Positions 30,923 through 53,392 of a stretch of 64,000 nt of DNA are shown in pieces. The stretch covers positions 672,001 through 736,000 of the forward strand of contig OY970332.1 of the NCBI GenBank assembly GCA_963717435.1. The letters are read 5' to 3'. The position numbers were made by a program, and so were the translations under genes. How positions within the stretch are numbered: position 1 is the first letter of the stretch; each line of letters begins with the position of its first letter. The stretch is from an uncultured bacterium. GTDB taxonomy: Bacteria; Babelota; Babeliae; Babelales; Babelaceae. The notes under the pieces were generated by a model. The model saw only the letters and a program-made list of their open reading frames with translations. It searched no databases and had not been told where the DNA came from.

Positions 30923-32116
30923 ATGCCATATTTCAAATGGACCGGAATAGATATTTCAGGAAAAGTTTATAAAGGCAAAGATTTTGCGCGATCAAAATCT
31001 CAGGTCGATAATGTTCTTTTCAAGCACGATCTTGCTTTAATTGATATCAAGCAAGTTTCGGCTCCTATTTTTGAAGAAAAAATTAATAGCTCAAATAAAT
31101 TAGAATTTTTTAGAATGCTTTCTATTCTTCTTGGCGCAGGTGTCAAGCTTCATGATGCATTAGAGATTATTTTTGTAAAGCAAAAAAATGGACGTTTTAA
31201 ACTTGTAATCGAGGATATTAAAGATGCTGTTAGCGAAGGTATAAATTTTGGCGAAGCGCTATCACACCACAATGACATTTTTGATTCGCTTACTTGCGCG
31301 TTAATAGCTTCTGGTACAGAATCGGGCAATTTGCCACAATCACTTAATATTATTGTTGAAAGTGCTCAAGAGAGACAAATTTTTTTACAAAATTTAAGAT
31401 CAGCCCTTTTGATGCCGATAATAACTTTTGGTTTTTTTATCTTTATTTTAATTTTGCTTTTTATTTTCGTGATTCCACGTTTTGTGGATATGTTTGCATC
31501 TTTTGGAAACAATATCCCATGGGCTACAAGAATGGTTATAAATATAAGCAAAACTATAACTAGCTTTAATTTTGTTTATATTTTAATGGGATCAGTTTTA
31601 ATCGGGTTAATTTTAAATCGCGTTTTTAAATTAGAATCTGTAAAAAAAATCAAAGACAGCTTTTTGTTAAATACCCCAATTTTTGGTCCAATAATTTTGC
31701 AATATAACATAGCAAACTTTTTGCACACACTCTCTGTTTTACTTCAGGGCGGGGTTCATGTTGTCAGAGCGCTTGAAATTTCCCGCCAAGCCGTTAAAAA
31801 TTCAAATCTTGGAGTTAAAATAGACAGGGTCGCAAGACTCGTTGAATCTGGAAACTCTCTAAGCGACTCATTTAAACAAGTTGGCTTTGATGACCCTGAG
31901 TTAATAGCTTTGGTTTCTGTTGGGCAAGAATCAGGCGCATTGGCTTTTACTGTTTTAAAGTCTGCTCAAATATATCAAGATAGATTTTATAGAAGAATTA
32001 AATTCTTAATTACGCTTATCCAGCCGCTACTATTAATAGTTATAGGTTTATTTATTGCCACACTTATATTTGCCGTTTACGTGCCAATATTTACCATGTC
32101 TTCCGTTATACAATGA
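30923..32116 (+). CDS. Type II secretion/type IV pilus inner-membrane platform protein (GspF/PilC family)
   Basis: MPYFKWTG start, LLGAGV, GTESGNL, IPRF, GQESGAL and IQPLL...VYVPIF. Confidence 0.9.
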   Translation: MPYFKWTGIDISGKVYKGKDFARSKSQVDNVLFKHDLALIDIKQVSAPIFEEKINSSNKLEFFRMLSILLGAGVKLHDALEIIFVKQKNGRFKLVIEDIKDAVSEGINFGEALSHHNDIFDSLTCALIASGTESGNLPQSLNIIVESAQERQIFLQNLRSALLMPIITFGFFIFILILLFIFVIPRFVDMFASFGNNIPWATRMVINISKTITSFNFVYILMGSVLIGLILNRVFKLESVKKIKDSFLLNTPIFGPIILQYNIANFLHTLSVLLQGGVHVVRALEISRQAVKNSNLGVKIDRVARLVESGNSLSDSFKQVGFDDPELIALVSVGQESGALAFTVLKSAQIYQDRFYRRIKFLITLIQPLLLIVIGLFIATLIFAVYVPIFTMSSVIQ

Positions 32117-32751: not shown

Positions 32752-33093
32752 ATGATCGATTCAAATTGTCTGTTTTGCAAAATTATCTCCGGTCAAATTC
32801 CAGCCGAAATAATAAAAGATACTGAGCAAGTCTTGGTCATCAAAGACAAGTTCCCAAAAGCCCCAATTCATTATTTAATCATCCCCAAAAGTCACGTTAA
32901 AGATATTCAGTCAATAGATCCAAAAGATTCTTGGATGGCTGCAAAGACCTTTGAAGTTGCAAAACAACTTTCTGAGGAAAATCCAGAAGCCAAAGATTTT
33001 AAGCTTGTTGTTAATTCCGGCTACGGCGCTGGCCAAAGGGTGTTCCATTTACACACCCATTTTTTAGCTGGTAGATTGCAGGGCGAAGTTTAA
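32752..33093 (+). CDS. HIT family nucleotide-binding protein
   Basis: CLFCKI, PKAPIHYL, GQRVFHLHTH histidine triad. Confidence 0.92.
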   Translation: MIDSNCLFCKIISGQIPAEIIKDTEQVLVIKDKFPKAPIHYLIIPKSHVKDIQSIDPKDSWMAAKTFEVAKQLSEENPEAKDFKLVVNSGYGAGQRVFHLHTHFLAGRLQGEV

Positions 33094-33659
33094 TTTTTAT
33101 CATCTACAATGTCTTCTATTTCCATAAGGGCGTAGTAAAATTCTTCGTGACCGCCATACTTAAGACTTTCATCTTTTAATAAAGATTTAATTTTAAGTAG
33201 TTTTTCGTTTGCTATATTTAGCACTTGGTTTTTATCCGTTTCTTCGTCACAAATTAAATGTATGTCTAAAATTACGTCATGTAGCTGTTCGGCAGTATCT
33301 TCTGGAGAAGCTGCATTTAGGGATTGTTCTGTTAAAGATTTAATTTTAATTAGCTTGCTATTATTTTTTTCCAAAAACTCTACCAAAGTTTTAATTTCTG
33401 AAAGTTGTTTGGATAAATTTTGTTGTGTTATTTCAGACAATTTTTTTGTTGCTTTTTGTTCGCTCAAAATTTCAATGTTTCTATCATTTGATTTTGAATA
33501 TTTTCTTAAATTATTTAAGTTTGTTTTTGGTTGTAGCAAAAATCTTGTTCTAGAAAGCTTTGCGCCGGTTTTTAATAAAGTCGCAAACATTGCATGTGAT
33601 TTGGATTGGGATAACATAATTAATGAGAGTAGGATAAAATTATTGAATGTAGATTTCAC
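33090..33659 (-). CDS. Secreted orphan with presequence-like segment (paralog C)
   Basis: GTG start after AAGGAG; 23-aa signal peptide followed by MFATLLKTGAKLSRTRF...LRKYS. Confidence 0.8.
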   Translation of the reverse strand: MKSTFNNFILLSLIMLSQSKSHAMFATLLKTGAKLSRTRFLLQPKTNLNNLRKYSKSNDRNIEILSEQKATKKLSEITQQNLSKQLSEIKTLVEFLEKNNSKLIKIKSLTEQSLNAASPEDTAEQLHDVILDIHLICDEETDKNQVLNIANEKLLKIKSLLKDESLKYGGHEEFYYALMEIEDIVDDKN

Positions 33660-33674
33660 TCTTTCTCCTTTGTA

Positions 33675-34136
33675 TTATCTAGTTTTTTCTTCCCAGTAAG
33701 TTTTTTCCCAGAACTCTTTTTGTTCAGGGTTCTTTTTTATTAGCTCTTTCAATTTCTCATATTCTTCATTGTTCTTTATTAAATCAATTCTTTCAATAAG
33801 TTTTAGTTTTAATTTAATTATCTTTGCAGCTTGTTCTTTTTCAGTTATTTCCCATTGCTCTACTTCATTTAAAAAATCTTTAATCATTACAAAATGATAC
33901 GGGTAAACTGAGTCTAGGCTGTCCTGAACCTCTTTATAATTATTGTATTTGTTATCGAATTCTTTTCTTTCTAAGACATATTTTCTTAGGCTATTTATCG
34001 TTTTTGGTTGTAACAACAATTTTGTTCTTGAAATCTTTGCGCCGGTTTTTAATAAATTACTAAACATAGAGTTTAGTTTGGCTTGAGATAGTATAATTAA
34101 TGAGATTAAAATAGATTTTTGAAAGTTCGATAACAT
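33675..34136 (-). CDS. Secreted orphan with presequence-like segment (paralog B)
   Basis: 23-aa signal peptide followed by MFSNLLKTGAKISRTK...LRKY. Confidence 0.8.
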   Translation of the reverse strand: MLSNFQKSILISLIILSQAKLNSMFSNLLKTGAKISRTKLLLQPKTINSLRKYVLERKEFDNKYNNYKEVQDSLDSVYPYHFVMIKDFLNEVEQWEITEKEQAAKIIKLKLKLIERIDLIKNNEEYEKLKELIKKNPEQKEFWEKTYWEEKTR

Positions 34137-34177
34137 AATAGGTCTCTTTTCTTTAGGTTCCTGATGTATATTGTCTT

Positions 34178-34756
34178 TTAATCTTGTTTTAGGCCTAACT
34201 CCTTTTTAAGTTCATCTGTAAGTTCTTCTATTTTTTTATTAGTATGGTAAATATTGGTTTCATTTGCCCCACAACGGTATAGGTCATCCGCCAAGTATCT
34301 AATTTTTTCTATCAAATAATTAATTTTATATACATTTTTTGTAGGGCTTGGTTTTCTTGCAAGTGTTTTTAATATTGATTTAATTTCTACGAGTTCTCTA
34401 GTTTGTTCTGAATGGATGGAATCGTGTTTTGTTTCTAAGTCTTTTAAATATTCTATTATTTTTATAACTTTATTATCACAAAGTTCTTTGGGATCGATCT
34501 CTTCTATGAATACAGGATGCCCTTGTATTATTTGTCCATTTTCATTTTTAATATAGAATTCTTTAAATTTCCCAATTTTAACATCATAATCTTGTGATTT
34601 GAATCTTCTTGAGCTTAAGTTTGTTTTGGGGTTTAAAAGAAATTTTGTTTTTGAAAGCACTTTAAGTTTGTTCAAGCTGCCAAACATGCAGTGCAATTTG
34701 GTTTGGGATAATATAATTAATGAGAGTAAAATGTATTTATTGAATCTTGATAACAT
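34178..34756 (-). CDS. Secreted orphan with presequence-like segment (paralog A)
   Basis: ATG 34756 after AGGAG; 23-aa signal peptide followed by MFGSLNKLK...SSRRFKS. Confidence 0.8.
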   Translation of the reverse strand: MLSRFNKYILLSLIILSQTKLHCMFGSLNKLKVLSKTKFLLNPKTNLSSRRFKSQDYDVKIGKFKEFYIKNENGQIIQGHPVFIEEIDPKELCDNKVIKIIEYLKDLETKHDSIHSEQTRELVEIKSILKTLARKPSPTKNVYKINYLIEKIRYLADDLYRCGANETNIYHTNKKIEELTDELKKELGLKQD

Positions 34757-34824
34757 AGTTTCTCCTGCTTTTTGTATAAATCTCAAGACGAGATTTTACA
34801 ACAAGTTATTTGCTTAGACAATAA

Positions 34825-37057: not shown

Positions 37058-37564
37058 ATGAATTTTAAAAACAAAATTTCACAGTATTTATTATTAAGCT
37101 TTATTATTCTTGGTTTTCAAAAAACTTCATGCATGGAAGTGGCTCAAGAGATTGCTTCTAGCGCAATAGCCGGCGCTGCTGCACGTACTTTGATTTTTGA
37201 AAATTTGCCAGGGTTATTTAAGGCAGAATTTAATAAAGACAACAAAAACAGTAATAAAGACGGTAATTCAAAGCGCGAAAGTAAAACAGACTGGAAAAGC
37301 TGGGCCCACGGTAGTGCTACCCTAATAAATTGCTTTAATATTGTTTTAGCTGCGCGATTTATTTTTAGAAAAAATGATATGATTAGCTATGCGCAATGGG
37401 GAACGCGGTGGTTTTATTTGCCCTCTGCTGCTGCAGGATCTCACTTTGAACGCAAATTTGTTAGGTCATTAAAAGATAATAAGACGTTGAAAAATCATGA
37501 AGATCTGGTTGATGCCTCTATGCCAGTCGTGCTTGCTGCTTTGCAGTATCTTGTAACTAAATAA
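37058..37564 (+). CDS. Secreted hypothetical protein
   Basis: GGAG RBS; signal peptide ending KTSC followed by Met. Confidence 0.75.
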   Translation: MNFKNKISQYLLLSFIILGFQKTSCMEVAQEIASSAIAGAAARTLIFENLPGLFKAEFNKDNKNSNKDGNSKRESKTDWKSWAHGSATLINCFNIVLAARFIFRKNDMISYAQWGTRWFYLPSAAAGSHFERKFVRSLKDNKTLKNHEDLVDASMPVVLAALQYLVTK

Positions 37565-39849: not shown

Positions 39850-41392
<1,543 letters not shown>

Positions 41393-41490
41393 CGAGGGAG
41401 ATAATTAGATCCGACGACTCTTTAATCTTAGAAGTGTTACATTGTACGGTGATAAAGAATTCATAATCTTATAGGTTTTTTAGAATTACT

Positions 41491-41567
41491 GGGCCTATAG
41501 CTCAGCTGGTTAGAGCACCCCGCTGATAACGGGGAGGTCAGTCGTTCAAGTCGACTTAGGCCCACCA
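41491..41567 (+). tRNA. tRNA-Ile(GAT)
   Basis: Spacer tRNA, CT-GAT-AA loop, CCA. Confidence 0.95.
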
Positions 41568-41617
41568 AAAGTGGCCTAGTAATCTGAGATCTCGTCTAGG
41601 TTATGTTCTATAATATA

Positions 41618-41692
41618 GGGGATGTAGCTCAGTTGGTAGAGCTCCGCTTTGCACGCGGAGGGTCATCGGTTCGACTCCGCTCATCTCCACCA
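41618..41692 (+). tRNA. tRNA-Ala(TGC)
   Basis: GGGGATG acceptor with G3:U70, TT-TGC-AC loop, CCA. Confidence 0.92.
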
Positions 41693-41856
41693 ATATTTCG
41701 ATCTGGCTGAGTATAATAAGGTCTAGAATTCTTTATATATATCATAGATGTTTAAATTAAAAAATTCTTGTGTTCTTTGAAATATTTGTAATGTAATAAT
41801 TGCTGAATAGTATAAGTTAATACTACAATCTAAGTAAATAAAGTCATTAAAAATTT

Positions 41857-44877
<3,021 letters not shown>

Positions 44878-44985
44878 GCTATAATTTAAAAAAGTCTAAA
44901 CAACTTAGTCGAAAAAACTAGTAAGAATTATCATCAAATATTTCAAAAACACGAGATTAAATTTTGAATATGAATCATAAAAATT

Positions 44986-45101
44986 TCCTGGTGCGTATAG
45001 CTGTGGGGTCACACCCGTTCCCATTCCGAATACGGAAGTTAAGCTCACAGCGCCGATGATACTTGGCTGGTAACGGGCTGGAAAAGTAGGTAGTGCCAGG
45101 A
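44986..45101 (+). rRNA. rrf: 5S rRNA
   Basis: TCCTGGTG...CCCATTCCGAATACGGAAGTTAAG...GCCAGGA. Confidence 0.95.
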
Positions 45102-52667: not shown

Positions 52668-52752
52668 GGTGAGATTCCCGAGCGGTCAAAGGGGGCGGAC
52701 TGTAAATCCGTTGGCTCAGCCTTCGTAGGTTCGAATCCTACTCTCACCACCA
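52668..52752 (+). tRNA. tRNA-Tyr(GTA)
   Basis: GGTGAGATT... CT-GTA-AA loop, CCA. Confidence 0.95.
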
Positions 52753-52784
52753 TTATTTCCGCAGGAAATGAATGGCAGGCCAGT
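52750..52784 (+). repeat. tRNA 3'-linked hairpin repeat, copy 4 (diverged)
   Basis: CCATTATTTCC-GCA-GGAAATGAATGGCAGGCCAGT, starting at the CCA of tRNA-Tyr. Confidence 0.85.
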
Positions 52785-52844
52785 TAAAAAAAGTTTTTTT
52801 GTATTTGATTAAAATTAAAAAAACTGCTTAAATTTGTAAACCGC

Positions 52845-52920
52845 GCGGGAATAGCTCAATTGGTAGAGCGGCAGCCTTCCAAGCTGTAGGTTGCGGGTTC
52901 GAGTCCCGTTTCCCGCTCCA
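52845..52920 (+). tRNA. tRNA-Gly(TCC)
   Basis: GCGGGAATAG... CT-TCC-AA loop, TCCA end. Confidence 0.95.
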
Positions 52921-52929
52921 GAAAGCATT

Positions 52930-53005
52930 GCTGGCGTAGCTCAGTTGGTAGAGCAGCTGATTTGTAATCAGCAGGTCGCTGGTTCAAATCCAGTCGCCAG
53001 CTCCA
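52930..53005 (+). tRNA. tRNA-Thr(TGT)
   Basis: GCTGGCGTAG... TT-TGT-AA loop, CCA. Confidence 0.95.
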
Positions 53006-53084
53006 TAAATTCAAAAATTGCTATTGTCTTTGTTTTTGTTAAATTAAATTATAATTTAAATAATAGTGATAATTGTAATGATTG

Positions 53085-53160
53085 GCCCACGTAGCTCAGT
53101 TGGTAGAGCACTTCCTTGGTAAGGGAGAGGTCACCGGTTCAAATCCGGTCGCGGGCTCCA
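53085..53160 (+). tRNA. tRNA-Thr(GGT)
   Basis: GCCCACGTAG... TT-GGT-AA loop, CCA. Confidence 0.93.
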
Positions 53161-53217
53161 GGTGTACAGAGCGATGTAATAGCGCAAAATTTAATTTAAA
53201 ATCACAGGTTATTTATT

Positions 53218-53376
53218 ATGGCAAAAAATAGAGTAACTACTCATTTGGCTTGTGAAAGTGCAAAGAGCGTAATTATACGCAAGTTGTATCTAAAAAGCGA
53301 ACTGTTGGTTCTCTGAAACTTAAGCAAATTTTGCTTCCGCTGCCGCAAGCACAATATGCATAAAGAAACAAAATAA
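53218..53376 (+). CDS. rpmG: 50S ribosomal protein L33 (apparent indels)
   Basis: MAKNRVTTHLACE, then after a frame change CKERNYT...KFCFRCRKH..HKETK; two CxxC motifs. Confidence 0.88.
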
Positions 53377-53392
53377 CAGTATTTAATGTATT

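Follow-up and report, generated by a model that had tools for sequence, protein, structure and literature searches.

Dependentiae are widespread obligate parasites of protists, and nearly one in two of the proteins predicted for them has a signal peptide. To our knowledge, almost nothing has been described on how these proteins exit the diderm cell or where they go. Here we analyse three tandem genes, g1 to g3, in a 64,000-nucleotide stretch of DNA from an uncultured bacterium of the Babelaceae (assembly GCA_963717435.1, contig OY970332.1, positions 672,001 to 736,000), hereafter called the window. As it stands, the trio is an orphan family with an unusual conserved polybasic module located between a signal peptide and a diverging domain. 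A conserved module after the signal peptide of a fast-evolving tandem family represents a concrete handle on the Dependentiae secretion problem.

The closest described repertoire is that of the Dependentiae themselves. In Chromulinavorax destructans, a signal peptide is reported for 44% of the coding sequences, with enrichment among ORFans (PMC6561590), and in Babela massiliensis 79 of the 126 ankyrin proteins carry one, the type II secretion system being the only secretion system detected (PMC4378268). The Sec-dependent ORFans and ankyrin proteins are presumed in these reports to be secreted into the host by Sec followed by a type II/secretin route (PMC6561590, PMC4378268). The trio is similar to this repertoire, as it consists of signal-peptide-bearing, lineage-specific proteins of an ATP-importing intracellular parasite; indeed, three ATP/ADP translocase open reading frames (ORFs) are present in the genome, which fits an intracellular energy parasite. 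Unlike the repertoire, the trio has a conserved polybasic module between signal peptide and passenger, it lacks any recognisable domain, and homologues are absent from 260 other genomes of the phylum. C. destructans is also wrapped by the host mitochondrion (PMC6561590). This biology is not simply transferable, since the genome of C. destructans (1,174,272 bp, 33.7% GC) differs in size and composition from that of the window (1,198,203 bp, 34.6% GC). A presequence is mentioned in the main text of neither report, and the word itself has no occurrence in that of PMC6561590.

That a bacterial protein can carry an organelle address is already established, as in the case of Ats-1, VacA p34, CLIBASIA_04065 and SAP11. 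The effectors Map and EspF of enteropathogenic Escherichia coli have a cleavable N-terminal mitochondrial presequence, and VacA is an autotransporter with a signal peptide of the Sec type. For Anaplasma Ats-1, the first 17 residues are described as necessary for targeting, cleavage occurs near residues 55-57, and import was shown experimentally (PMC2824752). The trio shares with Ats-1, Map and EspF a basic segment as a candidate N-terminal targeting peptide. However, those effectors enter the host by type IV or type III injection and have the presequence at the true N-terminus, whereas the segment of the trio would be exposed only after removal of the Sec signal peptide; and while import of Ats-1 is known by experiment, the trio is known from sequence and the amphipathicity of its segment is unsupported. 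For the p34 fragment of Helicobacter pylori VacA, the mature N-terminus is described as targeting mitochondria by means of 32 uncharged residues, with the inner membrane as the location (PMC2861713). It provides a precedent for a signal that is N-terminal after signal-peptide removal; in contrast, the segment of the trio is strongly basic, and the autotransporter route across the outer membrane belongs to VacA. Phytoplasma SAP11 is described with a distinct nuclear-targeting domain (PMC4235307), and a fusion of Liberibacter CLIBASIA_04065 to green fluorescent protein was located in plant mitochondria (PMC6888081). Both are Sec-delivered effectors of wall-less or phloem-limited bacteria in which, as is proposed for the trio, a region behind the Sec signal peptide sends the mature protein to a compartment of the host. 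They differ in host and lineage, have no sequence similarity to the trio, and the text on the CLIBASIA_04065 fusion does not state a presequence as the cause.

A comparable layout is also present in eukaryotic pathogens. Oomycete RxLR-dEER and Plasmodium PEXEL proteins combine a signal peptide, a short motif within about 40 residues, acidic residues, a fast-evolving domain and organisation in tandem families. The likeness to the trio is an analogy of design only, as those motifs are read by the pathogen's own eukaryotic secretory machinery. An assignment to PEXEL or RxLR was rejected: the exact RxLxQ pattern occurs in g3 only (RFLLQ), the aligned place reads KxLxQ in g2 (KLLLQ), KxLxN in g1 (KFLLN) and NLNLQ in the relative P0004, and there is no RxLR.

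A conserved basic module behind the signal peptide

The trio and its modules are arranged as follows (window coordinates).

34178..34756, minus strand: g1 (P0002), a 192-residue paralogue, from the ORF list; profile match E 1e-33; ATG at 34756, AGGAG at 34766-34762, 6 nucleotides upstream
34688..34756, minus strand: predicted signal peptide of g1, residues 1-23; n-region R4/K7, h-region ILLSLIIL, c-region SQTKLHC; ratio of nonsynonymous to synonymous divergence (dN/dS) about 0.2-0.3
34592..34687, minus strand: basic acid-free module of g1, residues 24-55 (Met24 to RRFKSQ), net +8, from composition; predicted local distance difference test (pLDDT) below 50 in AlphaFold2
33675..34136, minus strand: g2 (P0001), a 153-residue paralogue, from the ORF list, with profile match
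34068..34136, minus strand: predicted signal peptide of g2, residues 1-23
33972..34067, minus strand: basic acid-free module of g2, residues 24-55 (Met24 to RKYVL), net +7
33090..33659, minus strand: g3 (P0003), a 189-residue paralogue with a GTG start after AAGGAGA, from the ORF list, with profile match
33591..33659, minus strand: predicted signal peptide of g3, residues 1-23
33486..33590, minus strand: basic acid-free module of g3, residues 24-58 (Met24 to RKYSKSN), net +8

An earlier note on this DNA had described three tandem orphan genes on the minus strand with related 23-residue signal peptides. The ORFs are located where it had placed them, and the peptides agree letter for letter. The genes lie head to tail, with gaps of 41 and 15 nucleotides, and the short spacers suggest that they form one operon. 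Translation starts at Met1, which is preceded by a Shine-Dalgarno-like motif in each gene (AGGAG in g1, AAAGAGA in g2, AAGGAGA in g3). For g1, the ATG at 34756 was taken as the start, while the longest listed frame reaches a TTG at 34786. The N-terminal likeness of g1-g3 is paralogy: of the 9,984 stop-to-stop ORFs in the genome, a profile hidden Markov model (HMM) of residues 1-56 matches only the trio, with E 1e-31 to 1e-33, the next best ORF being at 0.012.

The proteins appear to be built of three modules: a type-I signal peptide that would end in a junction between a small residue and Met, typical of the lineage; the basic module; and a rapidly diverging C-terminal domain that is predicted to be of mixed charge and mostly helical. 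From Met24 onwards, acid-free stretches of 32, 32 and 35 residues with 8, 7 and 8 Lys+Arg are found in g1, g2 and g3, respectively, and the first Asp/Glu occurs 3-5 residues past RRF/RKY, so that the counts of the earlier note for both features hold. Across seven family members, the module has 28-38 residues, a net charge of +6 to +11, no Asp or Glu, and 6-7 Ser+Thr. Its core reads S-[KR]-T-x-hydrophobic-L-L-[QN]-P-K-T, followed by [RK][RK][FY], and the residues after the proposed 23|24 cut are Met-Phe or Met-Leu in all members. The positions that are invariant in the seven-sequence alignment are M1, L10, S12, L13, I14, S17, Q18, K20, M24, S35, T37, L41 and K44.

The basic module is the best-conserved part of the proteins. 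Among the trio, codons 24-53 have a dN of 0.13-0.45 and a dS of 1.65 (0.38 for g2/g3), and codons 1-23 a dN of 0.20-0.34 and a dS of 0.8-1.2, whereas in the remainder dN reaches 0.8-1.1, dS is saturated, and amino-acid identity between paralogues is 16-30%. Since dS is 0.8-1.65 while dN is 0.13-0.45, the conservation of the N-terminal part is attributed to purifying selection rather than to recent conversion. Recent gene conversion is ruled out for most comparisons by the same dS range; codons 24-53 of g2/g3, with a dS of 0.38, possibly represent a conversion patch. As the module is the best-conserved part while the passenger domain drifts, a sequence-specific interaction is suggested over a signal of the composition type.

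The module is also an outlier among the exported proteins of the genome. In this comparison, genes were called with our own caller and signal peptides with our own heuristics. Of 1,251 ORFs, 457 were predicted to be exported, and in these the signal peptide is followed by an acid-free run with a median length of 5 residues and a 95th percentile of 27. A run of at least 30 residues with at least 7 Lys/Arg occurs in 7 of the 457, three of them the trio, and with the same filter only the trio and one member of a second tandem pair, introduced below, remain among proteins of at least 100 residues. In the first 400 kb of G007, a related complete genome (1,118,422 bp, 27.6% GC), the same filter is passed only by a Gly/Arg-rich low-complexity protein. 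Similarly, the net charge over the 25 residues after the h-region is +5 in the trio versus -0.32 +/- 2.35 in the background. When position is disregarded, acid-free 32-residue windows with at least 7 Lys/Arg occur somewhere in 99 of the 1,251 ORFs, many of them ribosomal proteins. In an AlphaFold2 model from a six-sequence alignment (pLDDT 53, predicted template modelling score 0.28), residues 21-63 have pLDDT below 50, and coil or no regular structure is predicted at 32-60 with low confidence. The module is thus probably a disordered, Lys-rich, acid-free segment of 32-35 residues under purifying selection. A pairing of its charge with an "acidic" domain was discarded, as the rest of the protein has a net charge of -10 to +3.

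The family has a restricted distribution. When 261 genomes of the phylum were searched with its profile, it reached a meaningful score only in the genome of the window, and outside that genome it is represented by five short metagenome ORFs only, on contigs of 1.1-1.8 kb; the orphan status claimed earlier thus stands, as no family match was found either. Our preferred, though tentative, reading is that the trio is a genus-restricted, tandemly amplified, modular family of Sec-exported, effector-like proteins in which the basic module serves for docking or sorting in a sequence-specific manner. After translation from Met1, the precursors would be exported by Sec and cleaved at 23|24 by a single signal peptidase I, and the mature proteins would be released from the diderm cell by a secretin pathway or in vesicles. 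Genes for signal peptidase I, LspA, Lgt and two secretins are indeed present in the genome, and one for a type II secretion protein F lies 1 kb from the trio. The module would then dock or sort, bringing the variable domain, inside the host cell, to a partner or an anionic surface, and its role would be other than that of a generic amphipathic matrix presequence. Tandem triplication together with divergent C-terminal domains may reflect a diversifying host-interaction family.

Candidate cleavage sites and the small-residue|Met junction

The predicted signal peptides of the trio have 1-3 Lys/Arg in residues 2-8, an h-region ILLSLIIL or a variant of it at 9-16, and a c-region SQxK(L/S)(H/N)x. 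Signal peptidase sites follow the -3/-1 rule, with small uncharged residues at both positions. In the seven-sequence alignment, position 23 (-1 of the 23|24 site) is always small (C/S/A/S/S/S/S), with L/L/S/L/L/L/L at -3, and position 19 (-1 of 19|20) reads T/A/S/A/A/A/A, with an invariant Ser at -3. The genome has one Peptidase_S26 match for signal peptidase I (E 1.3e-36, above the cut-off). Cleavage at 23|24 is plausible, and it is favoured over 19|20 by analogy with the small-residue|Met junction that is found genome-wide. Other readings of the N-termini were rejected: a lipoprotein, as Cys23 is present in g1 only (one of seven aligned sequences) and is preceded by K-L-H without a lipobox, even if LspA and Lgt are encoded; a Tat signal, as no member has RR before the h-region; and a prepilin. 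An unsupervised expectation-maximisation matrix built on 356 signal-peptide-like proteins was also discarded, having converged on the end of the h-region with no cleavage motif.

The junction was counted by aligning signal-peptide-like proteins on the end of the h-region, with paralogues kept, so that the counts are not independent. Within offsets 1-10 after the h-region, Met is present in 119 of 420 proteins, versus 50 in a control window of the same proteins. Its frequency peaks at offsets 4-7 (0.040-0.064 versus a background of 0.0157), and Met24 of the trio is at offset 7, called the modal position of the junction. The residue before the junction Met is small in 89 of the 119 (S30, C26, A17, G16) and the residue after it is mostly acidic (E41, D11). 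In particular, Cys-Met is tenfold enriched at residues 13-35, with 46 occurrences in 28,773 positions versus 50 in 307,585 elsewhere. Forty signal-peptide-like proteins read C|M at this place. Window examples of the junction are g1 (C|M, with the Cys23 codon at 34688-34690) and the plus-strand ORF at 37058-37564. Cys is moreover enriched just past the h-region in general (79 of 360 versus 37 expected), often in an N-x-x-C context where large residues (N, Y, F, H) precede the Cys, a pattern unlike the canonical lipobox in a genome that does have LspA and Lgt.

The junction Met is not a start led by a Shine-Dalgarno motif. In a set of 140 junction proteins, such motifs precede 54% of the first Mets versus 1% of the junction Mets; genome-wide, the values are 49% for annotated starts, 7% for random internal Mets and 1% for junction Mets. 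In addition, the residue that follows the junction Met (E/D/Q) is unlike the usual second residue of the genome (K/N/I/S). In the first 400 kb of G007 the junction is present in 65 of 142 proteins versus 17 in the control, mostly as S|M(E/Q), and the proteins that carry it are enriched in an ankyrin-like motif (30 of 50 versus 13 of 92 other signal-peptide-like proteins). Many of the G007 junction proteins show LPxEL F-box-like starts. The word "methionine" does not occur in the main texts of PMC6561590 and PMC4378268, so that a junction Met is not mentioned there.

As Met24 is a lineage-wide trait, it is no longer specific evidence for host mimicry in the trio family. Met24 had been proposed earlier as a host-like start that is unmasked by signal peptidase; the 23|24 cut gains support by analogy, while the host-like character is weakened by a junction that is shared across the lineage and usually followed by acidic residues. 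The junction is the more general and better-supported finding. It may also matter more than the trio itself, as it represents a simple, testable regularity of the Dependentiae secretome.

Possible mitochondrial, nuclear and envelope destinations

The earlier note had read the N-termini as a bipartite address in which the 23|24 cut unmasks a Met-first, Lys-rich matrix presequence, which would be imported by the host TOM/TIM machinery and cleaved at [RK]-x-[FY] by MPP, the mitochondrial processing peptidase, with or without Icp55. The two parts are indeed there, a Sec-type signal peptide and, behind it, a basic segment that is conserved and acid-free. A matrix presequence is supported by composition only: the segment is acid-free, has a net charge of +6 to +11, is rich in Leu, Ser and Thr, and is soon followed by acidic residues; it would be N-terminal only with a cut at or close to 23|24. 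The unmasked end would be Met-Phe or Met-Leu in all members, and the segment is an extreme outlier in the secretome. A presequence is expected to be able to form an amphipathic helix with its basic residues on one face. This capacity was evaluated by the maximal Eisenberg hydrophobic moment (100 degrees), for which each segment was shuffled 2,000 times as a reference. For g1, g2, g3, P0004, P0005 and P0009, respectively, the shuffle p values are 0.95, 0.11, 0.24, 0.48, 0.78 and 0.65 with 11-residue windows, and 0.92, 0.46, 0.39, 0.68, 0.75 and 0.71 with 18-residue windows. Helical amphipathicity above shuffles is found in none of these six members, and g1 is below the shuffle mean. The 18-residue moments (0.23-0.40) are in the range of ordinary N-termini of the proteome (median 0.31, 90th percentile 0.46). 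Against the background of the genome, run length and charge stand out and the hydrophobic moment does not.

By the rules for MPP and Icp55, an Arg stands at -2 or -3 of the processing site (R-x|x or R-x-[YFL]|[SA]). Four members, g1 (RRF-K), g2 (RKY-V), g3 (RKY-S) and P0004 (RKF-T), have R-x-[FY], and the remote pair has IR[SD]F. The full R-x-Y-S, within the R-x-(Y/F)-S that had been proposed, is found in g3 only, and the Arg is not kept in relatives: P0005, P0006 and P0009 have K-K-F, P0007 has K-K-I, and the motif is deleted in P0010. The Lys:Arg ratio of the three segments, 16:7, equals that of the proteome (2.6:1, from 8.8% and 3.4%), and P0005 and P0009 have no Arg at all; there is thus no Arg preference in the module. 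Furthermore, strong conservation of the leader with a divergent passenger is the reverse of the usual presequence pattern, AlphaFold2 gives coil rather than helix at residues 32-60 (at low confidence), there is an alternative cleavage site at 19|20, and Met24 is part of a general junction with mostly acidic residues behind it. The design is not a general code: in this genome it is confined to two related families, the trio and one remote tandem pair. In favour of the model, the organism imports ATP by way of its translocases, wrapping by the host mitochondrion is described for a related species (PMC6561590), even if it is known for C. destructans and is not simply transferable, and bacterial proteins with cleaved presequences are known, such as Ats-1 (PMC2824752). 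On balance, the presequence model is rather improbable. Mitochondrial targeting as such is possible and is not refuted by these tests, since in Dictyostelium, an AT-rich protist, lysine-based presequences are reported to work despite low predictor scores (PMC3578813). A broader version, in which a Met-first N-terminus that looks newly translated is unmasked lineage-wide for the host cytosol, while the trio and the remote pair carry a lysine-type organelle-import leader, has only a slim chance of being right. If it were true for both, Sec-exported bacterial proteins would be addressed to the host mitochondrion by a two-step code; and a module that acts as an organelle-import signal would tie a defined gene family to the mitochondrion-centred lifestyle of one member of the phylum.

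Retention in the envelope is an unlikely destination, even if a diderm by default keeps its Sec substrates in the periplasm. The proteins would stay in the periplasm or at the inner face of the outer membrane, with no delivery to the host, and the polybasic, probably disordered module would tether them to anionic lipid head groups, lipopolysaccharide or peptidoglycan-associated polymers. We know of no linear signal for secretin-type export, and the hydrophobic C-terminal segment of the remote pair would serve as a membrane anchor. However, housekeeping envelope proteins are usually phylum-wide, whereas this family is found in 1 of 261 genomes; tandem amplification and fast divergence are typical of host-interaction genes; and the genome's other predicted exported proteins are neutral to negative in their early mature part. 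Delivery to the host with another address, the module being a nuclear or nucleolar localisation signal or a patch that binds phosphoinositides or membranes, is very unlikely. Its Lys/Arg clusters are about 11 residues apart (KTK...RRFK), in the manner of the bipartite nuclear consensus, and the lack of amphipathicity suits an extended basic motif better than a helix; SAP11 also offers a Sec signal peptide that is followed by a nuclear-targeting region (PMC4235307). The evidence is compositional, and a nuclear localisation signal does not account for a hydrophobic LL(Q/N)P core or for Ser/Thr residues that are invariant. The probability is slighter still that the proteins are never exported, either because the net +5 in the 25 residues after the short h-region blocks or inverts translocation, leaving them in the cytoplasm or anchored by the N-terminus, or because the invariant Met24 is a second start that yields a cytoplasmic form. 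The strictly hydrophobic core of the signal peptides has 8-9 residues, too short for a membrane span, and the signal peptide is under purifying selection. As for the second start, no Shine-Dalgarno-like motif precedes Met24 in any of the three genes, in line with the 1% of junction Mets that have one genome-wide, and Met24 as an internal start was rejected on this basis. A plastid-type bipartite signal (signal peptide plus transit peptide) was likewise rejected, since it needs translation on host ribosomes and a eukaryotic origin, and no such homologue was found.

Several points also weigh against the docking or sorting element that we prefer. A strongly positive early mature region hampers Sec export in E. 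coli, and the +5 over 25 residues seen in the trio is reached by 5 of 356 background proteins. Export out of the diderm cell is an assumption of the model. Two cleavage sites are compatible with the alignment, 23|24 and S-Q-A|K at 19|20, and a crude scorer picked 19|20 or 17|18. There is no fold or family match in Pfam, NCBIfam, PDB or ESM Atlas, and the AlphaFold2 model is of low confidence. Finally, the support is at the sequence level, with secretome statistics that depend on the gene caller and heuristics described above.

Relatives and genomic setting

Database searches define the family further. A HMMER search of 1.84 billion representatives added P0004 (178 residues, E 1.7e-33), P0005 (193 residues, E 6.7e-18) and two fragments, while P0009 and P0010 were added by a cluster look-up and a second search. 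P0010 (151 residues) equals P0009 minus 25 residues, the deletion removing [RK][RK][FY] and the start of the acidic part; it may be a natural variant or an assembly artefact. Three matches were dismissed as spurious: P0008, a repeated C2H2 zinc-finger protein from the HMMER search, and those in G007 and G099 (E about 0.005), which cover the helical part only and lie inside frames of 840 and 592 residues. A scan of JGI metagenome contigs with the family alignment gave 209 pattern matches, none of them confirmed, and a homologue search with g2 alone returned g2 only. For the trio, Pfam gave nothing below E 0.069, NCBIfam nothing below E 0.024 (far under its cut-offs), the PDB profile search a best E of 0.088, to a coiled coil, and ESM Atlas no usable match.

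The second tandem pair has the same layout as the trio apart from its end. A signal peptide of 20 residues is followed by Met21-Phe/Leu, 45 or 41 acid-free basic residues, IR[SD]F and a charged helical part, and the proteins end in a hydrophobic C-terminal segment. Profile-profile comparison (hhalign) of the pair with the trio family gives a probability of 48% and E 1.8e-4 over 114 columns from the junction, and the pair is thus a possible remote paralogue of the trio rather than an independent invention. It was not found in the other 260 genomes of the phylum. A further ORF of 100 residues (L007; G000:C1:544202-544504, minus strand, G000 being the genome of the window) has a signal peptide ending in SANC, then MFATQANRF, KRFKSD and a tail rich in Cys. 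Its sequence recalls g3 in the MFAT start and g1 in RRFKS, with an HMM score that is not significant (E about 1).

The remaining features referred to in the text are the following.

G000:C1:394475-395834 (L006:2475-3134 and L006:3181-3834), minus strand: second tandem pair, 219 and 217 residues
G000:C1:589391-589867 and G000:C1:594400-594885: two ORFs with a secretin domain (frames of 855 and 958 residues)
window 30923-32116, plus strand: gene for a type II secretion/type IV pilus protein F (Pfam T2SSF, 2.6e-51), 1 kb from the trio
34793..34821, minus strand: promoter-like match TTGTCT-17-TAAAAT (9/12) upstream of g1, a weak call from consensus match alone

The promoter-like match is considered weak because such matches are about as frequent in the DNA as in shuffles (19 observed versus 14.1 +/- 3.9). 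The immediate neighbours of the trio are a glyoxalase-family gene upstream on the same strand and, downstream and converging, a HIT-family gene with tRNA-Leu(CAA). The region is flanked by the gene for the type II secretion protein F and by an OPT transporter gene.

Eight short contigs from four DNA sequencing runs of soil and freshwater-sediment metagenomes match scattered pieces of window positions 33000-34729. Six are 146-193 nucleotides long with 0-2 differences, and two are weak partial matches of 35-39 nucleotides; they span no whole gene, give no variation at key residues, and were not used as habitat evidence. Elsewhere, the window carries a complete rRNA operon (16S, 23S, 5S) at 39850-45101, with spacer tRNAs at 41491-41564 and 41618-41689, and clusters of tRNA genes at 29031-29592 and 52668-53465.

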